A stretch of DNA of 63,198 bases from Burkholderiales bacterium (GTDB lineage Bacteria; Pseudomonadota; Gammaproteobacteria; Burkholderiales; SHXO01), in the NCBI GenBank assembly GCA_036554965.1, contig DATBMG010000032.1, forward strand, positions 1-63,198, given 5' to 3'. The notes under the pieces are model-generated. The model worked only from the letters and a program-made list of their open reading frames with translations, did not search any database and was not told where the DNA came from. Positions 30,747 to 53,936 of the stretch are shown here, piece by piece. Positions within the stretch are counted from its first letter, which is position 1. Each line of letters opens with the position of its first letter. The position numbers were made by a program, and so were the translations under genes.

Positions 30747-33700
30747 TCAGCGCGCACCCTGGGGGGCCTGGCCGGCGGTACCGAGGGCGTCCAACAGATC
30801 GACCGGCAGTTTCAGGGTGTTGCCGAGAATGCCGAGCAGGCGCGCCGCTACCGCCTGCGGGGCGAGCGGCACAACCGCCGGATCGGTCACCGTACCGCGT
30901 ATGCGTACCGGAATCGCCACCAGCGTCCCGCCCAGCACACGGCCCAGGATCGGCACCCGCCGTACCACCGCATCGACCGTCTTCAACGGCGCGACCAACA
31001 GATCCAGATCCAGGGTGCCCGCGGCGAGGTCCGTCTGCCCCTGCGCCGCCAGCGTGACGGTCTCGGCGTCCAGCACGCCGTGCTCGAACAGCAGGCGGCT
31101 GCCTTCGATCCGCCCTTTCGTCTGCGCCGACTTGAAGGCCATCCCCTCGCGACTCAAATCGGGCAGGCGCCCACGCACCGCCTCGGTCACGTTGAGCACG
31201 GCGAACACACGGTTGAGCGTGGTGAAGGCGAGAATGCGCCCGTCGCGGGCGTCGAGCTGGAAGTCGCCCTGCATGCGGTCGAGCAGCAGAGCGGGCGGGC
31301 CTTCCGAGGCAAAGCGCACATCCATGTCGAAGCCGCCGGTGGCGGCGATGCGGCGCTCGGTCAGGCAGGGAACGGACGCCTCCAATCGCGCGCCGCGGCT
31401 AGACAGCTCCCCTTCCAGCCGCGCCTGGCTGGGCCCTGCCGTGAGCCGTGCCTTCAGGGCGATGCCGCACAGCGCCGCGCGTTGTACGACGAGGTCCAGG
31501 CGGCCGCTCTCGAGCGTGCCGGCGGCCAGCAATGGCATCACCTCGAATTGACCGATCCCGACACGATCCAGATGCACGCGCACGCTCCCCCAAACGGGAA
31601 GGTCTGCTGCGAGCAGCCGCGGCAGAACCCCGCGCGCGTCTGCGTCCGACGCAGGGGCTTGCCCCGCGTCGGCTTTCTGCCCGCCCCAGGCGGGTGCCAC
31701 GATCGATTTTCCCTGCAGCAGGAGATCCACGAGATAGCGGTCTTCTGCGGAGGCCACGGTTCCACTCAGCACCGCGTCAGTGCCCGGCCCCTCGATGCGG
31801 GCCGAGTCGATCCGCAGCAGCGCGCCGTCGGCCTCGAGCGAGAAGCGCTCGATGCGCCAGGGTACGGTTGCGGGCAACGGCGCATCGATGCCCTCCCCCT
31901 GCAGCCGCCCCAGCGCCCGGCTCGCGCGAGGAGAGTCGCGATCCAAGTCGAACGCGATGTCCCCGCTGAGCGTGCGAAACGGCACCGGCGCAGCGGGCAG
32001 CAGACGGCGGACGGACGCGGCGGTGAGGGCGCCTGTGAACGCTGCCCGCACCCGCCGTTCGCCGAGCGTGACGCGGACCGTCGCATCGGACTCGGCGTCG
32101 CGCAAGGCGACCCGGTTCAGCTCGACGCGGCCATCCGCCTCGCTCCGCAGATCGAACTCCAGCCGCACGCCATCCGGTGACTGCACCGCGCCTTGCGCGG
32201 CGAATGCTTTGTCGGGCGTCATTTGTACGCGCACGCGATCGAGCTGGAGCGGCACGGCCGGTCGTGCCTGCGCCGGCACGTCATAGCGCGCCTGCAGCCA
32301 GTCCAGCAGCGGCTGGTCCAGCCTGCCGCTGATCTCGGCCCGGCGCAGTCGATAGCCGTCCTCGACCCGCTCCAGCCGCCCGCCGATTCGCAAGGCCGAG
32401 CCGAGTGCCATGGCACTCACGTCGCTGCCGGTCAGCGCCTCGGGCTCGATGCGCAACGCGCCGCCGTCCAGCCGCACAGTGTCCTCCAGTTCGCGCGCGC
32501 GGATCACGACGTCCCTGGGAACCGCCTCCCCGCGGTAGCGCAGCCGCCCCGGCTCGGCGAGCGCGCCTTCGATCGACGCGAGCGACACCGCCGCCCGGCC
32601 GCGTCGCACGCTGTAGCCTTCGAGCCGAGGTGCGATCGCTGGTTGTCGCGCGAGCCATCGATACAGCTCGGTTAGCGCGACATCGGCGCGGCCGCCAGTG
32701 AGCCGCAGCCGGTACGGCGCCCGCAACTCGAGCGTGCCGGTGAGCGCGCTGAAGATCGAACCGCCGAGCCGTCCGGCCAGGCCTTGCGCCGACAACACGC
32801 GGCCGTCGTAACGCGCCGCACCTCCGGAAACCGCGAGCGCATACGGGAGCGCGTCGTGCACGACGGTGAAGTCGGGCTGCGACAGCGCCACGGCCGCCAG
32901 CGGCGCTTGCAGCGTCCCGTTCAGTTCGACCTGGGCGAGCACGCGCCCTTCCAACCGTCGCACTCGAGCGAGCTGCCGCCGTGCAGACTCCGCGCGCACC
33001 GCACCCCGCGCCAGTCGCAGCGCTTCCTCGAGCTGGACCGTCAGGTCCACGCGGCCCTGCAGCGGATGCGTCGACCCAGTAAGCTGGGCCGAGAGCTCGG
33101 CGCTGCGAATACGTGATGCGCCGACCGCACCCTGCAAGCGCTCGATGCGCAGCACGCCATCGGCATAGGCGGCCTTGCCTGCGAGTTCCCGCGCCGCGGC
33201 GTCGAAGCGCGGCAGATCAAGGGCCACCTGCTCGAACGCCGCAGCTGCCGTCAGGCGCTCGGGGCGCCACAGCTCGCCCGGGGAATCCGCCCTTGCGCTC
33301 ACTTCGATGTCGATCGCGCCCTGGCGCGGAACGGCGTGGGTCCTGACCGCCTGCGCCAGCCGCGGTGCGAGCCCTTCGAACAGCGGCCACCACTCGCCCA
33401 GCGCCAGGCGCGCGGCCTGCAGGCGCAGCGCGTAACCGTCGTCGCCGGCGCTGAATGCCCCCTTCGAAACGAGGGATGGCGTCTTGCTCGCCAGCGAATC
33501 CAGCGTCACGTTCAGGTTGCCGCGTGCGTATGCCGCCACCGCCTTCAGCGCGGCACCCTCGATGGTCAGCGCCTCTCCCGCCGCAGTGAGCTGGAGGCGC
33601 GCGGCGCTGGCGTCGAAGTTGACAGTCAACTGCGACGCGCCGCGCATCGTGCCGAGCAGGCGCAGGTCCAGTTTGCCATCGATGCCATAGGCATCCGGTT

Positions 33701-34466
33701 GTCTGGGCAAGAAGCCTTGCAGCACGGCGAGGCGCACGCCGCCGAGATCGAGCTCGATGCGGCCTTCCAGCGCCTCGTGCGCCAGCCGCAGCTTGCCTCC
33801 GAGGTGCTCGACCGGCTCGGAGGTCGCTCGTGCGCTCAGCTCGATCCCGTCCGATCGGGAGGCGAGCACCGCGTCTAGATTGCGCAGCACCAAGGCCGGG
33901 CCCTGCGCCGGGCGCAGATCCAGCTCGCCGTCGGCAATCTCCAGGTCCATGCCCGGCGCCAGCACCGCGAGCCGGTTCAGTGCGCCCCGCAGTCGTGCGT
34001 CGATGGTCTCCGGCGTGAGGCGCTCGCCCTCGCGCCGAGCCTCTGGCAGGAACAGCACCACGCGCGGGGAGCGCAGTTGCACCGCTCCAACGCGCACCTC
34101 GCCGGCGAGCAGCGGCAGCCAGGCGAGCCGCACTTCGACCTGTGCCGCCTGCGCTTCGACGCGACTCGGCAGCACCCAGTGCACATCCCGCAATGTCAAG
34201 CCGGGCCGCGGGAAGAACTCGAGCTGCAGGTGCTGGTACCCCAGCCCGCCCGGCACGCTGCGGTGGAGCTGCGCAAGCAGGGGCTCCTTGACCGCGTCGG
34301 CGTTGAGCCAGAGGGGCGCGGACAGCAACGCTGCGACTGCGACGAGGATGAGCGCGCCCAGCGTGCCAGACAGCCACAACAAGAGGCGGCGCGTTGCGGA
34401 CGCCCGGCGCGGAAGGCCTTGGATCGCGGCGCTATGTTGCGGCTGCTGACGCTGCACTCCCCACAT
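30747..34466 (-). CDS. Large AsmA-like (YhdP/TamB superfamily) envelope protein
   Basis: 1239 aa with an N-terminal TM anchor, a long beta-rich repetitive body and an AsmA-like C-terminal region ([25 protein letters not shown]...IRGTVTDP). Confidence 0.7.
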
Positions 34467-34781
34467 CGGACGGGTCTTGCGTGCGAATCCCCTCCGACAG
34501 CGCCCGTGCAGCCGCCCGTGATTGAGATCCGATGCGCCAGGTTAGCAGACCTGCGCAACTACGGCGCGAGGTCCGCTCGAAGCGGAGCCGCACGCCCATC
34601 ACTCGCAGATCAACAACGATTCACGGCAGCGCGCCGCCGCATCCAAGCAACGCCGGCACCCGTATCACGCGGAGCAGGCGGCCTGGAGAACGCGGATCCG
34701 GCCCTGGCCACCTTGCCGCGCCCGCACGCTCCCCGCGGCCGCGCACCGCACGCCGGCCGCATCCTTTCACGGAGAAGTGCA

Positions 34782-35042
34782 ATGGATACTCCCAAGCTTG
34801 CCCTTGCGGCCGCGGCTGCGGCGCTGTTCATCGCCGGGTGTACCACCCAGGGCGGCGGCAGCACGATGCAGACGGCGGACGCCGGAACGGTGAAGGTGAA
34901 GTGCTATGGCGCCAACGCCTGCAAGGGCCAGGCCGAGTGCAAGACGGCGATGAACGAGTGCAAGGGCCACAACGCCTGCAAGGGCAAGGGCTTCTTGAGC
35001 ATGACCGAGAAGGACTGCGTGGATCGCCTCGGACGCGCTTGA
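34782..35042 (+). CDS. Cys-rich secreted RiPP precursor of the bufferin type (BufA-like), with a lipobox
   Basis: GGAGAAG SD, then ATG. The 86-aa product starts [20 protein letters not shown] (IAGC lipobox). The core [40 protein letters not shown] has six Cys. It lies immediately upstream of the MNIO/DUF2063 pair. Confidence 0.8.
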
Positions 35043-35050
35043 GGCGTGGC

Positions 35051-35090
35051 GGGAAGCCGGTCGTGCCCGCCGGCTTCCCGCTCTTTTCTC
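35051..35090 (+). terminator. Intra-operon hairpin plus T-tract between the precursor and the MNIO gene (candidate attenuator/partial terminator)
   Basis: Perfect 10-bp stem gggaagccgg / ccggcttccc (35051-35060 and 35070-35079), 9-nt loop, then gctcttttctc. Confidence 0.6.
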
Positions 35091-35092
35091 GT

Positions 35093-35977
35093 ATGCGCCG
35101 AGACGCACTCTTGCCGGACCGCACGGCCCCGCCGCCGGACCGAGGATTGACCTTGCCGAGCGCGGGCTTCGGCCTGGGGCTGCGCACCGCACACTACGAA
35201 GCGATCGCGGCTGAACGGCCCGCGGTCGACTGGTTCGAGATCCTGACCGAGAACTACCTGGTGCCCGGCGGGCGGCCCCTGCAATGGCTGGACCGGATCG
35301 GCGCCGACTATCCGCTCGCCATGCACGGCGTGTCGCTGTCGGTCGGCAGCACCGATCCCCTCGACCTCGACTATCTGCGCGCGGTGAAGGCGTTGGCGCA
35401 GCGCGTCGCCCCGCTGTGGATCTCCGATCATCTGTGCTGGACCGGCGTGGCCGGCAAGAATCTGCACGACCTGCTGCCGTTGCCCTACACCGAACCGGCG
35501 CTGCGCCACGTGGTGGCGCGCGTTCAGGCGGCGCAGGAGTTGCTGGGGCAGCGCATCCTGCTGGAGAACGTCTCCAGTTACGTGGAGTTCAAGGATGCCG
35601 AGATGACCGAGTGGGAGTTCCTGGCGCAGGTGGCGCGGCAGGCCGACTGCCTGATCCTGCTGGACGTCAACAACATATATGTCAGCGCCTGCAACCATGG
35701 CTTCGCGGCCGACAACTACCTAACCGGCATCCCGGCCGAGCGCGTGCAGCAGATTCATCTGGCGGGACACAGTCATTGCGGCGAGTACATCATCGACACC
35801 CATGACGCGCCCGTGGCCGACCCGGTGTGGGCGCTGTACGAGCGCGCGGTCGGGCGCCTGGGCCCGGTGGCCACCATGATCGAGCGCGACGATCGCATTC
35901 CTCCGCTGGCGGAGTTGCTGGCCGAGCTCGAGCGGGCGCGCGCGCTCGGCGCCCGTGTGCAGGCCAGGCAGGCATGA
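35093..35977 (+). CDS. MNIO family (DUF692) multinuclear non-heme iron oxidative enzyme, BufB-like
   Basis: Motifs [52 protein letters not shown] and IHLAGHS. Start is ATG 35093, or in-frame TTG 35153, which has a better SD (GAGGA). Confidence 0.88.
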
Positions 35978-36753
35978 GCCTCCGCGCTTTGCAGGATGCC
36001 TTCCAAGCGTACGTGTTGCACGGGGCGGCACCGATCCGCGAGCGCGTCGCGCCGGGACCGCTGCACAACGCCGAGCGGCGCCTGCGGATCTACTACGACG
36101 CCTATCGGCTGCGGCTGATCGAGGCGCTCGCCAGCGATTACGAGACGCTGCGCGCCGCGCTGGGCGAGGAGGCGTTCCGGACTGCGGCCTTGGCGTACGT
36201 GCAAGCGAATATGTCGCAGTGGCGCAACGTGCGCTGGTACGGTGCGCGGCTACCGGACTTCCTGCGCGACACCGCGCCGTGGAGCGACCGCGTCTGGCTC
36301 AGCGACATCGCGCACTTCGAGTGGACGCTGACGCTGGCTTTCGATGCCGCGGACGCGTCCCGCCTGACCTTCGCCGAGCTCGCCACGCTGCCGCCCGAGG
36401 CGTGGGCGGCGCTCGCCTTCCGGCTGCACCCGTCCGTGCATCTGCTGCGGCTGTCGAGCAACGCCCCGGCGATGCGCAAGGCGGTGGACGCGGGCGCCGC
36501 ACTTCCCGCCATCGAGACCTACGATTCGCCCGTCGAGTGGCTCGTCTGGCGCAACAGCCTTACCGTGTCTTTTCGCTCGCTGCCGGTCGCGGAGCGCTAC
36601 GCCCTCGTCGCGGCGCAGCGCGCCAAGAGCTTCCCGGCGATCTGCGAAGGCATCTGCGCGTTCGTCCCTGCCGACGAAGCGCCTGCGCTCGCCGCCGGCT
36701 GGCTGCGCACCTGGGTGGACGACGGGTTGATCAGCGCAGCGCTGCTGCCCTAG
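35974..36753 (+). CDS. DUF2063 family protein (MNIO partner/precursor-recognition subunit, BufC-like)
   Basis: 259 aa with [10 protein letters not shown] and [21 protein letters not shown] overlap with the MNIO gene. Confidence 0.85.
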
Positions 36754-37193
36754 TCTTCCTGCAGCAGCGGTCGCACCTCGGCGCTGACCGGCACCTCCAC
36801 GCGCTTGCCGGCCTGCTCGACGATCAGAGTCAGCGCCACGCGCTCGCCCGGCTTGAGCGGCTTGGCAATATCGAACAGCATCACGTGGAAGCCGCCCGGC
36901 TCGAGCTTCACCGTCCGGTTCGCAGGCAGGTCGAGCGCTTCGACCTTGCGCATCTTCATCACGCCCCCGGCGTGGCTCATCTCGTGCACTTCCGCCGCTG
37001 CTGCGGCGCGGCTGCGCACACCCACCAGGCGCGATGCGCGATCGGCCTTGAGCAGCATGTAGACGCCGGCCACCTTCTGGCCCGGCATGGTGGCGCGCGC
37101 CCAGGCCTCGCTCACCTCCACCGCGGCGCGCACGCCGCCGGCGACCAGCCACAGGGCCACCGCCGAAGCGGCAAGTGCATGTCGTGCTTTCAT
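36750..37193 (-). CDS. Periplasmic copper chaperone PCu(A)C (DUF461)
   Basis: 147 aa with a signal peptide and the H(M)x10Mx21HxM-type motif (EVHEMSHAGGVMKM...GGFHVML). Its stop overlaps the bufC-like stop through a shared CTAG. Confidence 0.88.
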   Translation of the reverse strand: MKARHALAASAVALWLVAGGVRAAVEVSEAWARATMPGQKVAGVYMLLKADRASRLVGVRSRAAAAAEVHEMSHAGGVMKMRKVEALDLPANRTVKLEPGGFHVMLFDIAKPLKPGERVALTLIVEQAGKRVEVPVSAEVRPLLQED

Positions 37194-37288
37194 CGCGGAT
37201 CGAGGCGCCTGCGGCGAATCGGGAGTGCGAGCTTACCAGAGCGCGGGCGGCAGGGGCCCCGGCTTGCTGCGCTATAATCGCACCTGCG

Positions 37289-38410
37289 ATGCAGCGTCTT
37301 TTCCTTCTGGTCGCGCTGCTCGCCACCGGCGCGACCGCGCAGATTCCGGTAGCGCCGCCGAGCGTCGCCGCCAAGAGCTGGCTGCTATTCGACCTGCAGA
37401 GCCAGCAGGTTATCGTGGAACGCGCCGCCGGTGAGCGTATCGAGCCGGGTCCGCTCACCAAGCTGATGAGCGCGTACCTGGTGTTCGACGCGCTCGAGCA
37501 GAAACGGCTCACGCCGGACGGAACCCTGCACGTTTCGGCCAACGCGGTGCGCACGCCCGGCGCGCGCATGTACCTTAAGGCCGACACGCGGGTGGCCACC
37601 GACGAGCTGCTGCGCGGCATGATCGTGGTGCCGGCGAACGACGCCACGGTCGCGCTGGCGGAGGCGGTGGCCGGCAGCGAGCAGGCCTTCGTCGAGCGCA
37701 TGAACTTGCAGGGGCGGCGGTTGGGTTTGCGCGACACCGTGTTCGCCAACGCCACCGGTCTGCCGCACCCGCAGCACACCTCTACCGCCGCCGACCTGGC
37801 GCGGCTCGCCGCCGCACTGGTGCGCGACTACCCGCAGCACCTGCCGCTGTACCAGTTGCGCAGCTTCACCTACAACGGCGTGACCCAACCCAACCTCAAC
37901 TGGCTGCTCGGGCGCGATCCGCGCGTGGACGGGCTCGCTGTGGGCTTCACCGAGGACGGCGGTTTCAGCCTGGTGGCCACTGCGCGCCGTGACGATCGCC
38001 GGCTGCTCGCGATCGTCACCGGGGCCTCCTCGGAGAACCTGCGCGCCATGGAGGCGCAGAAGCTGCTCAACTACGGCTTCCAGCACTATCAGACCGCATT
38101 GCTGTACGCACGCGGCGCTGCAGTCGCCGAACTGCCCGTGTGGAAGGGCAGCGCGAAGAAGCTGAGCGCGGGCGTGGAGCACGACCTATTCGTGTCGGTT
38201 CCGCGCGGGCAGGCCAACCTGCTTAAGGCCACGCTGGTGAGCGAGCAACCTCTGCTGGCGCCGGTGAGCCCGGGGCAGCGGGTGGGCGTGCTGGCCGTGA
38301 CTTTCGACGGCCGGCCGCTCGGCGAGTATCCTGTGGTGGCGCTGCAGAGCGTGAGCGTGGCCAACCTGTTCGTGCGCATGTGGGACAGCTTGCGCCTGCT
38401 GTTCGATTGA
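37289..38410 (+). CDS. PBP5/6-like D-alanyl-D-alanine carboxypeptidase homolog (S11 fold) with all three catalytic motifs substituted; predicted to be non-catalytic
   Basis: 373 aa that aligns along its whole length with my recollection of E. coli DacA, including the C-terminal domain. SxxK is PLTK (P55), SxN is PAN (P115) and KTG is AVG (A217-V218). Confidence 0.85.
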   Translation: MQRLFLLVALLATGATAQIPVAPPSVAAKSWLLFDLQSQQVIVERAAGERIEPGPLTKLMSAYLVFDALEQKRLTPDGTLHVSANAVRTPGARMYLKADTRVATDELLRGMIVVPANDATVALAEAVAGSEQAFVERMNLQGRRLGLRDTVFANATGLPHPQHTSTAADLARLAAALVRDYPQHLPLYQLRSFTYNGVTQPNLNWLLGRDPRVDGLAVGFTEDGGFSLVATARRDDRRLLAIVTGASSENLRAMEAQKLLNYGFQHYQTALLYARGAAVAELPVWKGSAKKLSAGVEHDLFVSVPRGQANLLKATLVSEQPLLAPVSPGQRVGVLAVTFDGRPLGEYPVVALQSVSVANLFVRMWDSLRLLFD

Positions 38411-38431: not shown

Positions 38432-39337
38432 ATGCACTTCGAGCTTCCCCCCGGCGTGGCCGACGGCATCGTCTACCTGAACGGCGAGTTCCTGCCGCTG
38501 TCGCAGGCCCGCATCCCGGTGCTGGACCGGGGCTTCATTTTCGGCGACGGCGTCTACGAGGTGATCCCGGTGTACGCGCGCCGGCCGTTCCGCGTCGGCG
38601 AGCACCTGCGCCGCCTGCAGCGCAGCCTGGACGGCATCCGGCTCGCCAATCCCTATCCGGAAGGCGAATGGCGGCGCCTGATCGAAGAGCTGATCGCCCG
38701 CTGCCCGCACCGTGACCAGAGTCTCTATCTGCAGGTCACGCGCGGCGTGGCCAAGCGCGATCACGCGTTTCCGAAAGACACGCCGCCTACCGTGTTCATG
38801 ATGACCAACGTCCTGTCCACGCCCTCCACCGAGCAGGTGGAGAAAGGCGTGGCCGCGGTCACCGCCGAGGACAACCGCTGGCTGCGCTGCGACATCAAGT
38901 CGATCGCGCTCCTGGGCAACGTGCTGTTGCGCCAGCAGGCGGTGGACGCGGGCGCGGTCGAAACCATCCTGTTCCGCGACGGCGCCCTCACCGAGGGTGC
39001 GGCCAGCAACATCTTCGTGGTGCGGCGGGGCGTGCTCCTCACGCCGCCCAAGAGCCATCTCATGCTGCCCGGCACGACCTACGACGTGATCCTCGAGCTG
39101 GCGCGCAACGCCGGCATGCCGTGCGAGGTGCGCGCGGTTGCCAAGGAGGAAGTGCTGAGCGCCGACGAGCTGTGGCTCACCTCCGCCACGCGCGAAGTGC
39201 TCGCCGTCACCGCCTTGGACGGCAAGCCGGTGGGCACGGGCTCGCCGGGGCCGGTGTTCCGGCGCATGTACCGGCTGTTCGCCGATTTCAAGGCGGAACT
39301 CGAGCGCGGGCTCGACGCCGTACCTGGACACCGTTGA
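38432..39337 (+). CDS. dat: Class IV (fold type IV) aminotransferase, D-amino-acid transaminase-like
   Basis: 301 aa with DRGFIFGDGVYEVIP and LTEGAASNIFVV, in the conserved dacA-dat-ybeD-lipB context. Confidence 0.75.
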   Translation: MHFELPPGVADGIVYLNGEFLPLSQARIPVLDRGFIFGDGVYEVIPVYARRPFRVGEHLRRLQRSLDGIRLANPYPEGEWRRLIEELIARCPHRDQSLYLQVTRGVAKRDHAFPKDTPPTVFMMTNVLSTPSTEQVEKGVAAVTAEDNRWLRCDIKSIALLGNVLLRQQAVDAGAVETILFRDGALTEGAASNIFVVRRGVLLTPPKSHLMLPGTTYDVILELARNAGMPCEVRAVAKEEVLSADELWLTSATREVLAVTALDGKPVGTGSPGPVFRRMYRLFADFKAELERGLDAVPGHR

Positions 39338-39344
39338 GCGCCTC

Positions 39345-39614
39345 ATGGCCGATCCGCAGGTCTCCCCGATCGAGTACCCGGTCGACTTCCCGATCAAGGT
39401 GATGGGGAAGAACACCTCCGGCTTCGCCCAGATCGTCACGGCGATCGTGCTGCGTCACGCCCCCGACTTCGATCCCGCCAGCGTCGAGATGCGGCCCAGC
39501 CGCAAGAACAATTATCTCAGCGTAACCTGCGTGGTGCGCGCGCGCTCGCGCGAGCAGCTCGATGCGCTGTACACCGAGTTGAGCGGCCATCCGGCCGTGG
39601 TGATGGTGCTCTGA
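39345..39614 (+). CDS. ybeD: YbeD family (DUF493) protein
   Basis: 89 aa with [11 protein letters not shown]. Precedes lipB. Confidence 0.85.
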
Positions 39615-39637: not shown

Positions 39638-40345
39638 GTGAGGGTCGGGCGAGGGATGATGAATACGCAGCTGAATCACGAAGCGATGGCCGACGCCTCA
39701 AATCATTTCGCGCGTTGCACGTCGCGCACTTGGCCAGGCTCGCTCCGCCGTCTCGGCTTGGCCGACTACGCGTCCACCTGGCGCGCCATGCGCGAGTTCA
39801 CGGACTCGCGCAGCGCCGACACGCCGGACGAGCTGTGGTTGCTCGAGCATCCCCCGGTGTACACCTACGGAGTCGCAGGCCGCGCCGAGCATCTGCCGCG
39901 AGGCGATACCGGCATTCCGGTGATCAAGAGCGACCGTGGCGGGCAGGTCACCTACCACGGTCCTGGCCAATCGATCGCCTACACCCTGATCGACCTGCGC
40001 CGCGCCGGCCTGACGGTGCGCGGCCTGGTCGAGCGGCTGGAACAGGCCGTGCTAGACTTGCTGCAGGACTACGGCGTGCACGGAACGCGCCGCGAGGGAG
40101 CGCCGGGCATCTATGTAGGGGGCGCGAAGGTGGCCGCCCTGGGTCTGCGCATCCGCGGCGGGTACAGTTACCACGGCCTGAGCCTGAACGTGGATCTGGA
40201 CCTGGGCCCGTTTGCGGCCATCGACCCGTGCGGTTACCCGGGCCTGGCGGTCACGCGGCTGCGCGACCTGGGTGTGGTCGAGTCCGCCGCAGGCGTGGGC
40301 GAGTGCCTGCTGCATCACCTGATCGAGCAGCTTTCCAGACCATGA
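39638..40345 (+). CDS. lipB: Lipoyl(octanoyl) transferase
   Basis: Motifs [32 protein letters not shown] and PCGY. The exact start is uncertain because several in-frame Met codons are available. Confidence 0.88.
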
Positions 40346-41280
40346 GCGACCCCAGCAACGGCCAGACCGGCGCGGCGAAGACCGCACGCAATCCGGTCAA
40401 GATCATTCCTATCGCCCCGCTCAAGAAGCCCGAGTGGATCCGCGTGAAGGCCGGCAACAGCCAGACCTTCTACGAGGTCAAGCGCAAGCTGCGCGCGCAC
40501 AATCTGCACACGGTGTGCGAGGAGGCCTCCTGCCCCAACATCGGCGAATGCTTCGGCAAGGGCACCGCCACCTTCATGATCCTGGGCGACCTGTGCACCC
40601 GGCGCTGCCCGTTCTGCGACGTGGCGCACGGCCGCCCCAAGCCACCGGATCCGCAGGAGCCGCTGAACCTCGCCCGCACGGTGGCCGATCTCGGCTTGAA
40701 GTACGTGGTCATCACCAGCGTGGATCGGGACGACCTGCGCGACGGCGGCGCCGCGCACTTCGCGCAGTGCATCCGCGCCGTGCGCGAGCATTCCCCGGCG
40801 ACTCGGATTGAAATCCTCACGCCGGATTTCCGCCGCCGGCTGGAAAAAGCGCTCGACGCGCTGGCCGAGGGCCTGCCGGACGTGATGAACCACAACCTGG
40901 AGACCGTTCCTCGGCTATACCGGATGGCCCGTCCCGGCGCCGACTACGCGCACTCGCTCAAGCTGCTGCAGGACTTCAAGGTGCGTTTCGCCGGCATCCC
41001 TACCAAGTCAGGGATCATGGTCGGTCTGGGCGAGACCGACGAAGAAATCCTGCAGGCGATGCGCGATCTGCGCAGCCACGGCGTGGACATGCTCACCGTG
41101 GGCCAGTACCTGCAGCCGACCACCGGGCATCTGCCGGTGATGCGCTACGTGGAACCGGCGCGTTTCAAGGAGTACGAGCGCGAGGCGCTTGCGATGGGCT
41201 TCGCCCACGCGGCCTGCGGGCCGCTGGTGCGCTCGAGCTATCACGCGGACCAGCAGGCGCACGGCGTGGTCGCGGCATGA
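40342..41280 (+). CDS. lipA: Lipoyl synthase (radical SAM)
   Basis: 312 aa with [12 protein letters not shown] and [14 protein letters not shown] overlap with lipB. Confidence 0.95.
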
Positions 41281-43491: not shown

Positions 43492-44640
43492 TCAGCCGGA
43501 CCTGCGCCAGATGACACGGTTCACATAGTCGACGTAGCTGAGGATGATGCGCACCACCTTGCGTGCCACGTCCGTGGGAGCGTAGTCTCCGACCATGCGA
43601 AAACTTCGACCTTTGCTCCGCTGCTGCTGGGTGACCGTCTCGACCGCCTCCAGCACTCGCTCACGCCCCACCCCGCACATCACCAGGGTGCCTTCGTCCA
43701 TGCCCTCCGGGCGCTCGTGCGCCTCCCGGATGGTGACCGCGGGGAAATCCAGGATCGACGACTCCTCAGTGATGGTACCGCTGTCCGATAGCACGCAGAA
43801 GGCGTTCATCTCGAGCTTCGCGTACTCGAAGAAGCCCATTGCGGGCAAGAAGCGCAAGTCCGGCCCCTCGTCTTGCACGCCGAGCTGCGCCAGGCGCTTT
43901 CGCGTGCGCGGATGGGTCGAGAAGACCATCGGGTGACCCCAACGCGCCTGCAGGGTGCGCAGCGTGTCCAGCAAGGTCGCCAGCCTCGTCTCATCGTCGA
44001 CGTTTTCCTCCCGATGCGCGCTCACCAGGAAATAGGCTCCCTGCGAGAGCTCCAGATCGGCGAGTACGGTGCTCGCCTCGATCGGCTCACGATAGTGCTC
44101 CAGCACCTCGCGCATCGGAGAGCCGGTCTTGATCACCAGCTCGGGGCGCAAGCCCTCCGCCAGCAGGTAGCGCCGCGCGTGCTCGGTGTAGACCAGGTTG
44201 ACGTCGCTGACGTGGTCGACCAGGCGGCGGTTGATCTCCTCCGGCACGCGCTCGTCGAAGCAGCGGTTTCCCGCCTCCATGTGAAATACCGGGATCTTCA
44301 GCCGCTTGGCGCAGATCGCCGCGAGGCAGCTGTTGGTGTCCCCGAGCAGCAGCAGCGCGTCGGGGCGTTCGCGTTGCAGGATCTCGTAGGAGCGCGCCAG
44401 CACGTTCCCCAGGACCTCGCCCAGGCTCGCGTCGGCAACGCCTAGGAAATGATCCGGTTTGCGGATGCCCAGCTGGTCGAAGAACACCTGATTCAGCTCA
44501 TAGTCGTAGTTCTGGCCGGTGTGCACCAGCACTTGCCGCAGCGTCGCGTCGAGCTCGTGGATCACCCGGCTGAGCTTGATCACCTCGGGACGGGTGCCAA
44601 CGATCGTCATCACCTTGGTCGGCATCGGAGTCCCCCGCAT
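43492..44640 (-). CDS. Non-hydrolysing UDP-N-acetylhexosamine 2-epimerase (WecB/FnlC/WbvD type)
   Basis: 382 aa with KVMTIVGTRPEVIKL, HTGQNYD, GDTNS and HMEAGNR. Confidence 0.88.
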   Translation of the reverse strand: MRGTPMPTKVMTIVGTRPEVIKLSRVIHELDATLRQVLVHTGQNYDYELNQVFFDQLGIRKPDHFLGVADASLGEVLGNVLARSYEILQRERPDALLLLGDTNSCLAAICAKRLKIPVFHMEAGNRCFDERVPEEINRRLVDHVSDVNLVYTEHARRYLLAEGLRPELVIKTGSPMREVLEHYREPIEASTVLADLELSQGAYFLVSAHREENVDDETRLATLLDTLRTLQARWGHPMVFSTHPRTRKRLAQLGVQDEGPDLRFLPAMGFFEYAKLEMNAFCVLSDSGTITEESSILDFPAVTIREAHERPEGMDEGTLVMCGVGRERVLEAVETVTQQQRSKGRSFRMVGDYAPTDVARKVVRIILSYVDYVNRVIWRRSG

Positions 44641-45705
44641 CTAGCGCAGCAGCTCTTCGCCGGTGCTGAGGTCCACGTCCTCGATCGTGAGAGTGTGCTT
44701 GCGCAGCAGGGCGACGGTCGCGGAGAGGTCCAGCACCTTATCCGCGGAGCTGAATTCCCGGGTGAGGGCGTTGACCTCGGTGCGCGCCTCGCGCAGCTCG
44801 GGCAGCATTGGCTGAATCGCGTAGTACGGGCCGCGTCGTACGGTGTGATGGATCTCCTCCTCGGAAATCATGATCTCGTGCATCTTCTCCCCGGGCCGGA
44901 TGCCCACAGTCTTGATGGCGATGCCGCGGTCGGCGATCAGCGCCTTGGCGAGATTCAACACAGTCGCGGCGGGCGCATCGGGTACATAGGTTTCCCCCCG
45001 GTGCGCTTCCCGGACCGCAGCGAACACCGTATCGACGGCCTCGTTCAAGCTGAGCAGAAACCGCGTCATGCCAGGGTCGGTCAGCGTGACCGGCCCGCCG
45101 CTGCGGATCTGGTCGTGGAACAGCGGAATCACCGAGCCGCGCGAGGCCAGCACATTACCGTAGCGCACGCAGACGAAGCGCGTGCGCGGGTTGAGGATGT
45201 TCGCCGCGATGAAGATGCGCTCCTGCAGCGACTTGCTCATGCCCATCACGTTCACCGGCTTGCAGGCCTTGTCGGTGCTGATGCCAACCACCGTCTCCAC
45301 CGGATAGCTCTGCTCCTCGATGGCGCGCACGATGTTGTAGGCGCCAATGCAGTTCGTCATCAGGGCCTGTACCGGGAAGTATTCACAGGTGGGAACCTGT
45401 TTCAGGGCGGCCGCGTTGATCACGATGTCGGCACCTTTCGTGGCCGAGCACACGTCGTCGTAGCTGCGCACGTCGCCGATGCGAAACTCCAGCACGTTCA
45501 AGAAGTTGTTGAAGATGACTTCGTCCGTCGTCACGCGCCGGTGCAGGTAGGAAAGCCGCATCTCGTGCTGCTTCGCCTCATCGCGCGACAGCACGATCAC
45601 CTTGCGCGGCGTGCCCAGCTCTCCGCTCAAGACGCGATGCACGAACTTCTTTCCCATGGACCCGGTTCCTCCGGTGACCAGCACTGTCTTCTCCTGGAAG
45701 ATCAT
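44641..45705 (-). CDS. UDP-GlcNAc 4,6-dehydratase/5(3)-epimerase (FnlA/CapE/WbvB type)
   Basis: 354 aa with KTVLVTGGTGSMGKKFV, ISTDKACKPVNVMGMSK and VRYGNVLASRGSVIP. Confidence 0.88.
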   Translation of the reverse strand: MIFQEKTVLVTGGTGSMGKKFVHRVLSGELGTPRKVIVLSRDEAKQHEMRLSYLHRRVTTDEVIFNNFLNVLEFRIGDVRSYDDVCSATKGADIVINAAALKQVPTCEYFPVQALMTNCIGAYNIVRAIEEQSYPVETVVGISTDKACKPVNVMGMSKSLQERIFIAANILNPRTRFVCVRYGNVLASRGSVIPLFHDQIRSGGPVTLTDPGMTRFLLSLNEAVDTVFAAVREAHRGETYVPDAPAATVLNLAKALIADRGIAIKTVGIRPGEKMHEIMISEEEIHHTVRRGPYYAIQPMLPELREARTEVNALTREFSSADKVLDLSATVALLRKHTLTIEDVDLSTGEELLR

Positions 45706-45714
45706 CGTCCCCTC

Positions 45715-46572
45715 TCAGGTGATCTCGCGCGCAAGCTCCGCAACCATCTGGTCCCAGCTTGGCGGCGAGTAGCCGAATGCGGCGCGGAAACGCTCGGAAT
45801 TCAAGCTGCGGTCGCAGTGGAAGCCGTCGTCGGGCGCAATGCGCACCTGCAGCCCGAGCGCCGCATCGATCCGGCGCAACAGGTCGTGTTTGGATATCGG
45901 CTCGCTCGAGACGTGGTAGAGGCCCGATGCAGCCGGGTGGTCGGTGAGGAGCCGCTCGATCACCCGCGACAGCTCGGCGGTGGTGAAGCCGGAGAAGATG
46001 GCCCGAGTGAAGCCCTTGACAGCGCCGCCACGCTGGGCCAGGAACCACTCGAGCAGCCCGCGCTTGCGGATGAGCTCGGGGCCGATCATCGACGTGCGCA
46101 AGGTCAGACAGGGGGGCTCGGACACCTCGCCCAGCAGCTTGCTGCGCCCGTACAGATCCTGCGGGTCGGCTGGGTCGTCTTCGCGGTAGTCGCCCCGGGT
46201 TCCGGCAAACACACAGTCGGTGCTAAGGTGAACCAGCCGGGCGCCGACAACGCGGGCCAGCTGCGCCAGCCGGTGGGGAAGAAGACTGTTGATCTGCAGG
46301 CTCGGTATCGCCTCGCCGGCTTCGGCGCGCTGCTTCACGATGCCGACGCAGTTGACGATGGCATGCGGCGGGAAGGCGGCCAGCACCTGGGCCAGCTGGT
46401 CGCTGTCGCGCACGTCGACGCCGGCGAACACGTTGGCGGCGGTGAACAGCTCGAAGCGGGCGTAGGCCGGGAGCTCTTGGTGCAACGTGACCTTGACCTC
46501 GTGCCTGACCCGCAGCTGGCGCAGCAGGCGATGGCCAAGCATGCCGTCGCCGCCCAGGATCAGGACGCGCAC
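45715..46572 (-). CDS. RmlD-like SDR C-4 reductase (WbvR-like)
   Basis: 285 aa with MRVLILGGDGMLG and LVHLSTDCVFAG...Y...DP...YGRSK. It is shorter than, and of a different type from, the roughly 370-aa FnlB/CapF reductase. Confidence 0.8.
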   Translation of the reverse strand: MRVLILGGDGMLGHRLLRQLRVRHEVKVTLHQELPAYARFELFTAANVFAGVDVRDSDQLAQVLAAFPPHAIVNCVGIVKQRAEAGEAIPSLQINSLLPHRLAQLARVVGARLVHLSTDCVFAGTRGDYREDDPADPQDLYGRSKLLGEVSEPPCLTLRTSMIGPELIRKRGLLEWFLAQRGGAVKGFTRAIFSGFTTAELSRVIERLLTDHPAASGLYHVSSEPISKHDLLRRIDAALGLQVRIAPDDGFHCDRSLNSERFRAAFGYSPPSWDQMVAELAREIT

Positions 46573-46700
46573 CCGGTCTTTCCTCCGACCCGCTCCCTCA
46601 TCCAGCGGTCCAGGCGTGCGAGCAGCACGTCGCGTTCAACTCGCGCAAGAGGTACGCCGTGCTCCGCTGACCCATGATCTGTCGTCCACCACACGGCATT

Positions 46701-46731
46701 TTATACACTTTTCAGCACGCCGCTGGTCAAG
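46701..46731 (-). promoter_or_regulatory. Candidate sigma-70 promoter for the minus-strand sugar-nucleotide operon
   Basis: Minus strand reads TTGACC, then 19 nt, then TATAAA, inside the AT-richer 430-nt divergent intergenic region. The spacer is longer than ideal. Confidence 0.3.
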
Positions 46732-47004
46732 GAATACTCGGGGTTCTTGTGAGGCAGTCCGCGTTTGACTTGGCGTGGCCGGGGACTGCATAATTTGCCG
46801 CCACGTTCATTGTGAAGCCTCCCGGCAGCGTGGATCGGGGGTGAAAGGACGCCGCAGGCAGCCTCGATGGCGCGCCATCGGGCACACCGGATGCGGCAGC
46901 ACTCTAGCGTTGTCACAACGCCGCTGCCGGCATGGATTCTCCTAATTCTTGGATAAGTGCATCAGGTTGGACGGCCGGGTGCTGGGCGCGAGGAATGTCT
47001 CACG

Positions 47005-48234
47005 GTGACGCTTCTGCTGGTGACTCAGTATTTCTGGCCCGAGCAGTTCATCATCAACGACCTTGTGCGCCACATCGCGAGAAGAGGGCATAACGTCACG
47101 GTGATGACCGGCAAGCCGAACTACCCCGGCGGAGCGGTCTTCGAGGGCTACACCGAATCGGGTTTGCAGGTCGAAACCTTCGCCGATGGCGTGGAGGTAT
47201 TTCGAGTACCTCTGCGCGCGAGACGAAGCGGTGGCGCAAGAAACCTGTTCCTGAATTTCGTTTCCTTCGTCTGGTCCGGGTTGCGGTACTTCAGAAGGTT
47301 GCTGAAGAACCGCCATTACGACGCCATACTCGTGTTTGCCTCGCCGATTACGGCAGTCATTCCGGCCATTCCCCTCAAGTGGACAAAGAAGGCCCACCTC
47401 GCCCTGTGGATCCAGGATCTTTGGCCTGAGAGCCTCTCGGCAACGGGATTCGTTCGGAACGAATTTCTGCTAAGAGCCGTGGGCTATCTGGTGCGCGCTA
47501 TCTATGCTTGCGCAGACACGATTCTCATCCAGTCGCACGCTTTCCGGCAGCCCGTGGCTCGCTATGCCGGCGGGGCGAATATCGTCTACTACCCGAACTC
47601 GGTCGACGCCTCCAGCCCGATGGACGACGGGTCCGACTCCCTGCCAGAGGACCTCGTCAGCCTGCTGGATTCGAGTTTCTGCGTGCTCTTTGCCGGCAAC
47701 CTCGGGACAGCTCAAGCGGTCGAAACACTGGTCGAGGCGGCAGCGAAGCTGCGCGACCTGAAGGATTGCCGGATGGTTCTGGTCGGATCCGGAAGCATGC
47801 TCGATTGGGTGCGGGAAAGAAAATCAGCGCTCGGCCTGGACAACCTTGTTCTCGCGGGGCGTTTTCCCATGAGCGCCATGCCACACATCTATCGACGCGC
47901 GCGCGGGCTGATCGTGTCGTTGAAGGACGAGGAGATTTTCGCCTACACCGTCCCCAGCAAGATGCAGGCCTATCTCGCCGCCGGGAGGCCGATCATCGCC
48001 GCGCTCAACGGAGAGGGAGCCCGGGTCGTGACGGAGGCGAACGCGGGACTCGTGTGTCCTGCCGAGGACGCCGCCGGCCTCGCGCAGTGCATCCGTACGC
48101 TGCACGCCATGCCGGAGGCTGAACGCGTCAGGATGGGAGAATCCGGGTATGCCTATTTTCTAGAGCACTTCGAGATGAGCCGCCAGGCCGAGCGATTGAT
48201 AGAAATCTTGAGCTCCGGTGCGCGCGAGCGATAA
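47005..48234 (+). CDS. GT4 family glycosyltransferase (WbuB-like, the type associated with L-6-deoxy-HexNAc transfer)
   Basis: About 409 aa with N-terminus LLLVTQYFWPE and an EX7E-type C-terminal domain. GTG start at 47005. Confidence 0.8.
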   Translation: MTLLLVTQYFWPEQFIINDLVRHIARRGHNVTVMTGKPNYPGGAVFEGYTESGLQVETFADGVEVFRVPLRARRSGGARNLFLNFVSFVWSGLRYFRRLLKNRHYDAILVFASPITAVIPAIPLKWTKKAHLALWIQDLWPESLSATGFVRNEFLLRAVGYLVRAIYACADTILIQSHAFRQPVARYAGGANIVYYPNSVDASSPMDDGSDSLPEDLVSLLDSSFCVLFAGNLGTAQAVETLVEAAAKLRDLKDCRMVLVGSGSMLDWVRERKSALGLDNLVLAGRFPMSAMPHIYRRARGLIVSLKDEEIFAYTVPSKMQAYLAAGRPIIAALNGEGARVVTEANAGLVCPAEDAAGLAQCIRTLHAMPEAERVRMGESGYAYFLEHFEMSRQAERLIEILSSGARER

Positions 48235-48249
48235 CGCCGCTTTTCTCAA

Positions 48250-49272
48250 ATGTCCGCCGAGATGACGTGGGGGCTCGCCTTGGGGGTGACGGTGTTCGTG
48301 TCCACCATCGCCGGCACGTTAGCATTCCGGTCGTTGGCCTTTCGTAGGGGCATCCTCGCCAACCCGAACTACCGCAGCCTGCATCAACGCCCGATGCCAC
48401 AAGGCGGAGGAGTCGTGTTCTCGATTGCATTCCTCGCTGCGGTCACGGTCCTGTGGTGGACCGGCTCCATCGATGCGAAGTCGATGCAGGCGATCGGATT
48501 CGGCGGCCTGATGGCGGCCCTGTTTGGTTTTATGGATGATGTCATTCACGTGAATCCAGCCGCAAAATTACTGGCGCAAGGCGCCTTGGCGGGCTGGGTG
48601 TTGTTCTGTTTTGGCGGCAAGCCCCTGCTCGATCTTCCGTGGACGCCGACGATCGTGGAGCTTGGCCTCAGCTGGCTCGCCCTCGTCTGGCTGATGAACG
48701 TTTACAATTTCATGGACGGCGTGGATGGCATGGCTGCCTCGGGCGCTGTTTTCATCTGCTCGGCCAGCATCATTGTGCTGCTGCTATCGGACGGCGATCG
48801 TAGCCTTGTGCTCCTGTGCGGGCTGCTCGCGCTCGGCTGCCTGGGCTTCTTGCTGTTCAACTGGCCGCCGGCGTCGATCTTCATGGGAGATTCCGGAAGC
48901 CTGTTTCTCGGGTATTGCTTCGGCACCTTGATCACCAGAACCGTTGCCGAGGGCCAACTCAGCCCCTGGACATGGCTCGTGATTTTCGGGTACTTCGCGG
49001 GCGATACGACCACCACGACCGCGACGCGTCTCTGCCTTACCAAGACCTGGTACGGAGCGCACCGCAGCCATGCCTACCAGAATCTCGCTCGAATCTGGGG
49101 CGATCACAGGAAGGTCACGATTGGGGTGTTTCTCTATCACCTGCTCTGGCTGCTACCACTGGCCGTCTTGTCCGAACTGGCTCCGGCGGCTGCGCCGCTC
49201 GCCGCGGCACTTGCGCTGGGGCCAGCCGTTCTTTGGACGCTGCGGTACGGGCCCAGGCTGTCGAGCACCTGA
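48250..49272 (+). CDS. wbpL: WbpL/WecA-family initiating polyprenyl-phosphate HexNAc-1-P transferase
   Basis: 340 aa, about 10 TM helices, with GFMDD, NVYNFMDGVDGMA and IFMGDSGS. Confidence 0.88.
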   Translation: MSAEMTWGLALGVTVFVSTIAGTLAFRSLAFRRGILANPNYRSLHQRPMPQGGGVVFSIAFLAAVTVLWWTGSIDAKSMQAIGFGGLMAALFGFMDDVIHVNPAAKLLAQGALAGWVLFCFGGKPLLDLPWTPTIVELGLSWLALVWLMNVYNFMDGVDGMAASGAVFICSASIIVLLLSDGDRSLVLLCGLLALGCLGFLLFNWPPASIFMGDSGSLFLGYCFGTLITRTVAEGQLSPWTWLVIFGYFAGDTTTTTATRLCLTKTWYGAHRSHAYQNLARIWGDHRKVTIGVFLYHLLWLLPLAVLSELAPAAAPLAAALALGPAVLWTLRYGPRLSST

Positions 49273-49274
49273 CC

Positions 49275-50513
49275 GTGAGCACAGCGCGCTCGATCGTCGT
49301 TCTCGTGCCTGCGGAAGCCGCGATCCTCGAGTGCGACATCCTGGGCAGGCGTGCAATCGATCATTTGCTTCAGAACGTGCGAGGGCTAGAAGACGCGGAA
49401 GTAAGGATCGTTGCTTCCGGCAGCTCGCAGTCTCTTGTCAAGGGACTGCCGAATGTCCCCGTGCGAAGCATGTCCGAACTGCAGGAACCGCCTCTGGCGG
49501 ACGGAATTGCTCTGCTACTCGACGCGCGCCTCTGGTGTTCCTCCGTGGCATTGGAGAGCCTGTTCGTGCGCGCCCGGAACAGCGCGAATGGCCTTCGCGC
49601 GGTACTGCAACGTGGCCACGTTTCGGGCGTGCGCCGGGTCGAGACCCTTGCAGTTTGCATGCCCATCAACAGGGATCGACCCAACTTGATCCGGCGGCAG
49701 CGGCCCAATTCCGCGGCAGGGCTCGAGCAATTGCTCGACGCTGCGACTCTCGACGGGACCGCGGTTTGCGAAGCGTTCGACCTGGACCCCGCATGTCCTC
49801 CCATTTATGTAGGCGGCCATGAAGGCATTGCGGAGCTGGAACGGCGCTTGCTGCTCGAGCGCGCGGTTCTTGCCATGAAGCAGGGCGTGCGGATTCGCGA
49901 TCCGCACGCCGTCTACATTCGCGGAGAGCTGGCGTGCGGCGCAAATGTGGAAATCGAGGTGAATGTCATCCTCGAGGGTCGCGTTGTGCTGAGCGACGGC
50001 GTGAAAGTCGGAGCCAATTCACTGGTACAGAGCTCGACAATCGGCGAGCGGACACGTGTCAATCCGTTTTCCATCATCGAGGACTCGACAGTTGGATGCG
50101 ACGGCTTCGTCGGCCCTTACGCCAGGCTCCGTCCGGGAAGCCGCATCGGAGACGAGGTGCAGATCGGCAACTACGTGGAGATCAAGAACTCGCAAATCGG
50201 CGCACGCAGCCGGATCAATCACCACTCCTTCATCGGCGACGCGGTGCTGGGCGAGCGAGTGACAATCGGTGCGGGAACCATCACCTGCAATCACGATGGC
50301 GTGGGCACCCATCAGACCATAGTCGAGCGGGGCGCATTGATAGGCTCCGGCTGCAATCTGATCGCACCGGTCCGGATCGGGGAAGGTGCGACCGTAGGCG
50401 CCGGCTCGACGATCAGCCGGGACGTTCCGGCAGGAAAGCTCACCCTGGCACGCTCGCCGCAGACCACGGTCGAAGAGTGGCACGGACCGCGGACAAGACG
50501 GATGAAGAAATGA
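49275..50513 (+). CDS. GlmU-like protein with a conserved left-handed beta-helix acetyltransferase domain and a degenerate N-terminal nucleotidyltransferase domain
   Basis: The C-terminal half aligns closely with my recollection of GlmU (GPYARLRPG, NYVEIKNS, GAGTITCNHDG, IGSGCNLIAPV). The N-terminus has VVLVPAEAAIL where GlmU has LAAGKGTRM. GTG start. Confidence 0.8.
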   Translation: MSTARSIVVLVPAEAAILECDILGRRAIDHLLQNVRGLEDAEVRIVASGSSQSLVKGLPNVPVRSMSELQEPPLADGIALLLDARLWCSSVALESLFVRARNSANGLRAVLQRGHVSGVRRVETLAVCMPINRDRPNLIRRQRPNSAAGLEQLLDAATLDGTAVCEAFDLDPACPPIYVGGHEGIAELERRLLLERAVLAMKQGVRIRDPHAVYIRGELACGANVEIEVNVILEGRVVLSDGVKVGANSLVQSSTIGERTRVNPFSIIEDSTVGCDGFVGPYARLRPGSRIGDEVQIGNYVEIKNSQIGARSRINHHSFIGDAVLGERVTIGAGTITCNHDGVGTHQTIVERGALIGSGCNLIAPVRIGEGATVGAGSTISRDVPAGKLTLARSPQTTVEEWHGPRTRRMKK

Positions 50514-51976: not shown

Positions 51977-51979
51977 CAG

Positions 51980-53899: not shown

Positions 53900-53936
53900 C
53901 ACGACGCTCGCCGACCCGGGCCCTCTCCCGCGCGGG

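Follow-up and report, generated by a model that had tools for sequence, protein, structure and literature searches.

What becomes of a cell wall enzyme that has lost its active site, and why would a lineage keep it? The question is raised by one gene in a 63,198-nt stretch of DNA (hereafter the window; positions 1 to 63,198, forward strand, of contig DATBMG010000032.1, GenBank assembly GCA_036554965.1) from a Burkholderiales bacterium. The gene, a dac gene at positions 37289 to 38410, encodes a homolog of penicillin-binding proteins (PBPs) 5 and 6. PBP5-type DD-carboxypeptidases are textbook enzymes whose cellular role is explained entirely by pentapeptide trimming. The window protein was found to have all three of their catalytic motifs substituted, to belong to a clade in which this condition is shared, and to be under purifying selection comparable to that on the enzymes encoded beside it. 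Our preferred explanation, to which we assign a probability of roughly 0.6, is that the gene is a dead PBP5/6 ortholog kept by selection as a non-catalytic envelope scaffold or regulator.

The open reading frame (ORF) runs uninterrupted from an ATG at 37289 to a TGA at 38408-38410. The coding sequence and the substituted active-site positions are as follows:

37289..38410, forward strand: coding sequence of the degenerate PBP5/6-type protein, 373 aa (ORF list, Pfam, and AlphaFold2 model)
37451..37462, forward strand: degenerate SxxK motif, reading PLTK (CCG CTC ACC AAG), from the alignment to solved structures
37631..37639, forward strand: degenerate SxN motif, reading PAN (CCG GCG AAC), with Pro115 for Ser and Asn117 retained
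37895..37897, forward strand: Leu203 in place of the equivalent of E. coli PBP5 Arg198 (6ntz alignment, qlnRngll versus qpnLnwll)
37937..37945, forward strand: degenerate KTG motif, reading AVG (GCT GTG GGC), with Ala217 and Val218 for Lys and Thr and Gly219 retained

The three substituted motif sites were positioned opposite the catalytic motifs in HMMER alignments to four solved structures, namely Pseudomonas aeruginosa PBP5 (4k91, E-value 1.4e-88) and Escherichia coli PBP6, PBP6b, and PBP5 (6ntz). In the mature numbering of E. coli PBP5, as given by the 6ntz alignment, Pro55 (codon CCG, 37451-37453) takes the place of the nucleophilic Ser44, and the further correspondences are K58 to K47, P115 to S110, N117 to N112, L203 to R198, A217 to K213, V218 to T214, G219 to G215, F220 to H216, and R252 to R248. 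None of the three enzyme-defining motifs (SxxK, SxN, and K[TS]G) is thus present at its homologous position. Regular-expression scans of the whole 373-aa protein returned (i) no match to K[TS]G; (ii) a single other SxxK, the SAKK at residue 288, which falls within the beta-rich C-terminal domain II; and (iii) matches to SxN only at residues 83 and 248, neither of which is the homologous position. On re-reading of the sequence, the PLTK, PAN, and AVG substitutions proposed in the initial annotation matched exactly in coordinate and codon; its account of an intact ORF with a signal peptide and of an alignment with the PBP5/6 enzymes was borne out by the hydrophobic N-terminus, the structure alignments, and Pfam, and neither the scans nor the four alignments placed intact motifs elsewhere in the protein.

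The consequences for activity can be read from an engineered variant. E. coli PBP5(S44G) is stable and membrane bound, has no penicillin binding or DD-carboxypeptidase activity, and fails to complement (PMC2909392). Because the acylation residues are gone from the window protein, and because this one exchange is enough to kill the E. coli enzyme, both activities are taken to be lost: it is a safe inference that the protein would be unable to form an acyl-enzyme, and so would neither bind beta-lactams covalently nor remove the terminal D-Ala. That the protein nonetheless remains a DD-carboxypeptidase or a PBP, its motifs having been misaligned or its nucleophile replaced by an alternative one, is very improbable. 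The retention of Asn117, Gly219, Arg252, and the overall fold would favor such residual activity, yet the motifs fall at the same positions in four independent structure-anchored alignments, the scans leave no K[TS]G and only the SxxK of domain II, the general-base Lys varies among the closest relatives of the protein, and the S44G result shows how little change is required. By homology the protein is a member of the S11/PBP5-6 family, and on its residues it is not to be filed as a DD-carboxypeptidase or penicillin-binding protein.

The body of the protein was found to be that of its active relatives. Pfam assigned residues 21-247 to Peptidase_S11 (PF00768, E-value 3.4e-60) and residues 267-355 to PBP5_C (PF07943, E-value 1e-19), and identity to the solved structures is 33-43%. 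The nearest NCBIfam models, DacD, DacA, and DacC, were not reached at their equivalog cut-offs (264, 238, and 238 bits for DacA, DacC, and DacD, against cut-offs of 610, 694, and 765), a shortfall that a distant betaproteobacterial ortholog would be expected to show and that carries little information on function. The AlphaFold2 model, for which a 55-sequence alignment was used, has a mean predicted local distance difference test (pLDDT) score of 86.7 and a predicted template modeling score of 0.81, with confidence falling to about 73 across residues 211-230, the former KTG strand. This model superposes on PBP5 and PBP6 along about 340 residues; Foldseek gave template modeling (TM) scores of 0.84/0.92 with P. 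aeruginosa PBP5 (root-mean-square deviation 2.2 Å) and of 0.83-0.89 with E. coli PBP5 and PBP6. Outside the catalytic domain, three further elements were delimited:

37289..37342, forward strand: N-terminal signal peptide MQRLFLLVALLATGATAQ, a hydrophobic N-terminus ending A-T-A-Q, with a putative cleavage site
38087..38353, forward strand: C-terminal beta-rich domain II, residues 267-355 (PF07943; AlphaFold2 beta strands at 267-351)
38354..38407, forward strand: C-terminal amphipathic helix SVANLFVRMWDSLRLLFD, the presumed membrane anchor, which aligns with the anchor of E. coli PBP5

The signal peptide region has low pLDDT, forms a helix at residues 2-11 of the model, and aligns with the signal peptides of homologs. 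At the other end, the model places a helix at residues 360-372, the last 18 residues have a hydrophobic moment at the 99.7th percentile among the 18-mers of the protein, and the anchor motif R[LM]WD[SG]LRL is kept in dead and intact orthologs alike. These sequence features therefore predict export of the window protein and its attachment to the inner membrane in the manner of PBP5.

To place the substitutions among relatives, homologs were taken as the 120 best hits from a search of 5.8 billion proteins. The window protein groups with 13 protein clusters (P0001-P0011, P0015, and P0032; 66-96% identity), all of which lack both the nucleophile (Pro in 11, Ala in two) and the KTG lysine. The former catalytic positions vary within this clade: the Lys of SxxK is K, T, R, L, or Q; the Ser of SxN is P, L, Q, or S; and the Lys and Thr of KTG are A, T, or I and V, A, or T, respectively. 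The remaining hits, at 60-69% identity, nearly all read SLTK, S[AG]N, and KTG, the exceptions being a second degenerate clade and five partial states. In a neighbor-joining (NJ) tree the clade of the window protein was monophyletic in 100% of 200 bootstraps; its sister in the point-estimate tree is the intact pair P0013/P0019, with 30% support only. The ortholog alignment that the initial annotation had called for thus finds the substitutions to be lineage-wide. Source names of the clade members are those of uncultured Burkholderiales (P0008, for instance, is HEU5282256.1 of the metagenome-assembled genome GCA_035763945.1). A profile scan of genome contigs with the clade alignment returned only intact relatives, at no more than 64% identity, and so the clade appears to be absent from the species-representative genomes scanned; the same kind of scan over metagenome contigs returned one close partial relative (L007, 93%).

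The breadth of this clade bears on whether the substitutions are real. Intact ORFs were found in about 10 independent JGI, ENA, and NCBI assemblies, and no frameshift or stop was seen in the gene in any locus read. A sequencing or assembly artefact, or a mutation recent and specific to one strain, has next to no probability given that the same substitutions recur in these assemblies on differing synonymous backgrounds; artefact and recent pseudogene alike were ruled out by the independent assemblies, the intact frames, and the low ratios of nonsynonymous to synonymous substitution (dN/dS) reported below.

Loss in this lineage extends beyond the three motifs. Judged from the alignments, the clade is also without the Arg198 equivalent and without a fixed general-base Lys; at the position equivalent to Arg198, 98% of intact homologs have Arg, and the members of the clade have L or P. 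Our literature search on the role of Arg198 yielded only a docking paper, which lists it together with Ser86 and Ser87 among PBP5's active-site residues (PMC5512857). Because the clade has no equivalents of K213, T214, and R198, and often none of K47, ordinary binding of the D-Ala-D-Ala carboxylate in its cleft seems unlikely.

Whether the gene is the lineage's PBP5/6 ortholog or a supernumerary copy was addressed through its surroundings, which comprise the following features:

36750..37193, reverse strand: PCu(A)C copper chaperone, the divergent neighbor and conserved left border of the locus (Pfam PCuAC, E-value 3.3e-35)
37273..37278, forward strand: TATAAT hexamer, 10 nt 5′ of the start codon, identical in seven of eight aligned loci and with a putative promoter role
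38432..39337, forward strand: dat, class IV aminotransferase, 21 nt downstream of dac (Aminotran_4, E-value 1.1e-49)
39345..39614, forward strand: ybeD-like DUF493 gene (DUF493, E-value 4.7e-31; synteny)
39638..40345, forward strand: lipB, octanoyltransferase, the true start of which may lie a few codons downstream (LplA-B_cat, E-value 2.6e-33)
40342..41280, forward strand: lipA, lipoyl synthase (Radical_SAM and LIAS_N on 40300-41280), its likely start taken from 312-aa orthologs and giving a 4-nt overlap with lipB

The conserved dacA-dat-ybeD-lipB-lipA position named in the initial annotation is confirmed by these downstream domain assignments. Genomic context was read at nine related loci, seven with dead and two with intact copies, and as a gene list only for the contig of P0001. 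The order of a divergent PCuAC gene followed by dac-dat-DUF493-lipB-lipA was the same in all nine and in P0001, as far as the contigs reach; across the orthologous loci read, dat keeps its position and PCuAC lies upstream wherever a contig extends far enough, with the exception of a Uliginosibacterium locus considered below (L100), where dat is absent. Because dead and intact relatives share this one locus, the window gene is not a supernumerary paralog: it is orthologous to the PBP5/6-type DD-carboxypeptidase encoded in Betaproteobacteria at the dac-(dat)-ybeD-lipB-lipA locus. Directly upstream of dac, at about 34500-37193, genes for an enzyme of the MbnB/TglH/ChrH family that acts on ribosomally synthesized and post-translationally modified peptides (RiPPs) and for a DUF2063 (HvfC-like) protein join the divergent PCu(A)C gene in a bufferin-like, copper-related cluster, and BufA1-type precursor genes lie nearby on the related contigs L087 and L090.

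The spacer before dac also points to continued expression. Of eight orthologous loci that were aligned, seven share the TATAAT hexamer without change (the window, L087, L092, L095, L093, L090, and L096; six dead and one intact), and the eighth (L098, from the second degenerate clade) has TACAAT; elsewhere in the intergenic spacer, identity averages 59% across the aligned loci. No Shine-Dalgarno sequence was evident before the dac start codon, and a consensus promoter scan around the gene found neither a full sigma-70 site nor a notable terminator, the hexamer having been seen in the alignment only. The TATAAT is probably the −10 box of a leaderless or very short-leader mRNA of the dac-dat-ybeD-lipB-lipA operon, with dat probably co-transcribed with dac, and its conservation suggests that the dac gene is still transcribed from the ancestral signal.

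Selection on the gene was then estimated from pairwise dN/dS, with DNA for the clade members obtained by exact-protein look-ups (P0001 had no DNA). Within the clade of the window protein, the ratio was 0.14-0.33 by the Nei-Gojobori method (NG86; bootstrap 95% upper limits no higher than 0.44) and 0.07-0.13 by maximum likelihood (ML) and the Yang-Nielsen method (YN00), the latter two allowing for strong GC codon bias. The same genome pairs gave NG86 ratios of 0.13-0.24 for dat, 0.18-0.48 for lipB, and 0.05-0.16 for ybeD. On the NG86 estimates, constraint on the dead gene matches that on the genes of the real enzymes beside it, and purifying selection is clear. The dN/dS estimate, which the initial annotation had proposed as a check, is accordingly far below 1 and comparable to that of neighboring housekeeping enzymes, and the pseudoenzyme that had been suggested there is upheld in both of its parts: catalytic residues lost, purifying selection retained.

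These ratios also weigh on a view in which the gene is a slowly decaying relic, its activity dispensable and its frame persisting mainly because it heads the dat-ybeD-lipB-lipA operon, where it would supply a promoter or translational coupling. The gene does carry the conserved TATAAT and ends 21 nt before dat; catalytic decay is recurrent in the family, including changes of KTG to ATG, TTG, NTG, or GTG with the nucleophile intact, which suggests that the activity is often dispensable; and the clade evolves at a modestly higher rate than the sister lineage with intact copies. However, a constraint from the operon would keep at most an open frame and not an amino acid sequence, whereas dN/dS (0.07-0.33) is on the low level of dat and lipB, 107 of the 116 columns conserved in the family survive across 66-96% identity, the loci read contain no frameshift or stop, and the signal peptide and anchor are in place. 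We therefore regard a relic of this kind as improbable.

The distribution of change along the protein separates the old chemistry from the rest. Conserved columns were defined as those at least 95% conserved in 98 intact homologs, which gave 116 columns. Nine of these were lost in the clade (A54G, S55P/A, F95Y, S115P, Y164T, R203L/P, K217A/T/I, A224G, and C227S), most of which map onto known active-site elements, and K58 and T218 were partly lost. Ranked by variability among all 373 columns of the clade, K58 is third, 218 is 29th, 115 is 33rd, and 217 is 71st; in intact homologs these four positions have zero or near-zero entropy. Such variability at the ex-catalytic positions is, in the alignment, what marks selection as relaxed for the chemistry alone. 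Within the clade, domain I shows no less conservation than domain II, and N117, D118, G219, and R252 of the old cleft are invariant. In addition, the clade has fixed residues of its own: G54, T89, A92, Y95, F220, G224, and L251. Because positive charge was lost and these clade-specific residues were gained, the cleft would seem to have been remodeled and not simply abandoned.

The main alternative to a scaffold or regulator is a repurposed pocket that binds some other ligand (a signal molecule, a lipid-linked precursor, or a stem in tetrapeptide or amidated form) or runs a different reaction with new residues. All seven substitutions are fixed in the clade, rare in intact homologs, and adjoin former active-site elements: G54 stands beside the old nucleophile; T89, A92, and Y95 belong to the loop that corresponds to residues 84-90 of the E. 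coli protein, Ser86 and Ser87 included; F220 and G224 are on or after the KTG strand; and L251 is beside the retained Arg252 (Arg248). The four invariant cleft residues and the conservation of domain I also speak for it. Yet about 40% of all columns are invariant in the clade, so that fixation alone is weak evidence; cleft positions 58, 115, 217, and 218 drift freely; no plausible new nucleophile/base pair is evident; and the clustering at the cleft was assessed by where the residues fall in the sequence and by published active-site assignments rather than by distance in a structure. On balance a new ligand or reaction is unlikely, though it is to be preferred to the relic.

The loss was not confined to this clade. 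A second Burkholderiales group (P0087, P0089, P0115, and P0118) occupies the same locus, with AALTK, AAN, and [AS]xG as its motifs, and has retained the equivalents of Lys47 and Arg198; dN/dS for a pair of its members was 0.13 (NG86) and 0.046 (ML). It clusters with P0066, P0091, and P0097 in 73% of bootstraps and joins the clade of the window protein in none of 200, by which a single origin of the two Burkholderiales dead clades was rejected. Intermediate states were also found: P0066 has the nucleophile with AGN and GTG; P0062/P0078, P0027, and P0050 have lost only the lysine of KTG; and the intact sister pair P0013 (L096:8001-9128) and P0019 is already without the Arg198 equivalent, which is Ser, with P0013 reading KSG. 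Active-site erosion in these lineages appears, from these sequences, to have been stepwise.

A third case comes from a cultured organism. The protein P0183 of the isolate Uliginosibacterium sp. sgz301328 (Rhodocyclaceae; GCA_041807905.1, contig JBGVSA010000026.1, about 45318-46451; L100:10001-11134) reads AMAQ, GAN, and ADA, has also lost the Arg248 equivalent, and is encoded in a dac-DUF493-lipB-lipA locus; its relatives at 69-91% identity are equally degenerate, and in the tree it is placed apart from the clade of the window protein. On tree placement and gene order, the second Burkholderiales clade and cultured Uliginosibacterium each underwent this loss independently at the shared locus; their proteins match the window protein in architecture and are missing the same three catalytic residues, with other replacements. 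For the family at large, 144 full-length best hits (P0163-P0311) were taken from 1.84 billion 50%-identity cluster representatives. Deviation in at least one motif was found in 25 of the 144, and 15 lack the nucleophilic Ser, at about 10 separate places in the tree; many of the deviating representatives keep the signal peptide and a GRxWDxLRLW-type anchor. These counts are rough, as divergent dead copies form clusters of their own and the clade of the window protein is hidden inside an "intact" cluster.

How a dead PBP5/6 ortholog might serve as a scaffold or regulator can be outlined from these features. After export, the amphipathic helix would hold the protein on the outer side of the inner membrane, where it would act, at the inner-membrane face of the periplasm, without catalysis. 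Using parts of its surface that are not a working active site, it may contact peptidoglycan synthases, hydrolases, or nascent peptidoglycan, and whatever function is retained would depend on the protein being exported, tethered to the membrane, and whole in both domains. If the cell still needs DD-carboxypeptidase activity, a different low-molecular-weight PBP would supply it. The initial annotation had named a peptidoglycan-binding or regulatory factor as an example of such a function. There is precedent for contacts of this kind among related proteins: E. coli PBP4 contacts PBP1A/LpoA, NlpI, and EnvC and localizes without activity (PMC9166362), and Myxococcus DacB influences the dynamics of class A PBPs (PMC10475089).

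Several points weigh against this explanation. The non-catalytic mechanism is our inference; PBP5(S44G) fails in shape complementation and loses septal localization (PMC2909392), so that the known in vivo roles of PBP5 depend on catalysis. Selection appears somewhat relaxed compared with intact orthologs (ML omega of about 0.1 versus about 0.05, with dS saturated in the intact pairs), and nonsynonymous divergence from outgroups is about 10-25% above that of the sister intact lineage. A tblastn search of the 63-kb window with two intact orthologs found no second S11 gene, and nothing in the gene context points to a new partner, the operon being the same as in intact orthologs.

On no fewer than three separate occasions, one of them in a cultured genus, Betaproteobacteria have dropped the chemistry and kept the protein, and about a tenth of the family representatives nearest to the window protein are without the nucleophile. 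From this a more general proposal can be made tentatively, and we hold it as rather doubtful: a role independent of catalysis, and sufficient for long-term retention, may exist for the PBP5-type proteins of the dac-ybeD-lipB locus, such as organizing or restraining peptidoglycan synthase/hydrolase complexes at the inner membrane, or reading the state of the stem peptide through a remodeled cleft.

The window protein was also compared with known systems. With E. coli PBP5 (DacA) and PBP6 (DacC) and P. aeruginosa PBP5, class C low-molecular-weight PBPs of family S11, it shares the two-domain fold (TM scores of 0.83-0.92), the signal peptide, the C-terminal amphipathic anchor, and the ybeD-lipB(-lipA) neighborhood; it differs from E. 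coli PBP5 in that the equivalents of Ser44, Ser110, Lys213, Thr214, and Arg198 are replaced and that of Lys47 is not conserved in the clade. The engineered PBP5(S44G) is likewise a PBP5 scaffold without a nucleophile (PMC2909392), but it represents a single change with no known function, whereas the window protein has a multiply remodeled cleft selected across a whole clade. P. aeruginosa MipB lacks SXXK, YXN, and KTG and acts non-catalytically in a polymyxin-sensing pair (PMC10936184). Both MipB and the window protein are envelope proteins of a serine beta-lactamase/PBP-type fold with degenerate motifs, on different branches of that fold. MipB, however, is an AmpC-like outer-membrane lipoprotein (class C beta-lactamase fold) with an extra C-terminal domain, is encoded beside mipA, and is not an S11/PBP5 ortholog; in the window protein the best Pfam matches are PF00768 and PF07943 and not PF00144, MQRLFLLVALLATGATAQ contains no lipobox cysteine, and the neighboring genes are others.

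A different parallel, drawn in the initial annotation, was to the EnvC-like protein encoded at 24077-25330 of the same window. This coiled-coil M23 protein is indeed a degenerate LytM factor, with WNGLF in place of HxxxD and LYFEI in place of HxH, and degenerate metal ligands in the LytM domain are normal for EnvC. As a concept the analogy stands, since EnvC and NlpD are dead cell wall hydrolase homologs kept as periplasmic regulators; as homology it does not, since their fold is the unrelated M23 metallopeptidase fold. The partners of EnvC and NlpD (amidases and FtsEX) and their mechanism are known. The EnvC-like gene is preceded by gpmA and followed by a CtpA-type S41 protease gene at 25430-26845, an ordinary order that is also found upstream of the intact ortholog in L097.

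Two further regions of the window were recorded. A 1239-aa YhdP/AsmA-family protein is encoded on the reverse strand at 30747-34466, between an HSP20 gene and the copper/RiPP cluster, and is present also in L092. Downstream of lipA, a polysaccharide or O-antigen-type region at about 44000-56000 has a G+C content of 58-64%, against 67-70% elsewhere, and differs in gene content between related contigs; it was possibly acquired horizontally.

Our literature search, with most subscription journals outside its coverage, found no description of natural dead PBP5/6 (DacA-type) orthologs, and what is added here is orthology at a conserved locus, purifying selection like that on the neighboring genes, and repeated independent loss. 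One consequence is practical, in that automated annotation as "D-alanyl-D-alanine carboxypeptidase", and PBP inventories with it, are wrong for a visible fraction of the family. Were the gene a tolerated relic after all, it would show that DD-carboxypeptidase activity is dispensable in several betaproteobacterial lineages. The dead lineages constitute a natural experiment that separates the structural or regulatory role of the protein from its enzymology, and they give a concrete way to ask whether low-molecular-weight PBPs serve as scaffolds or regulators, with the culturable Uliginosibacterium as a tractable organism for the study of dead PBP5 orthologs.

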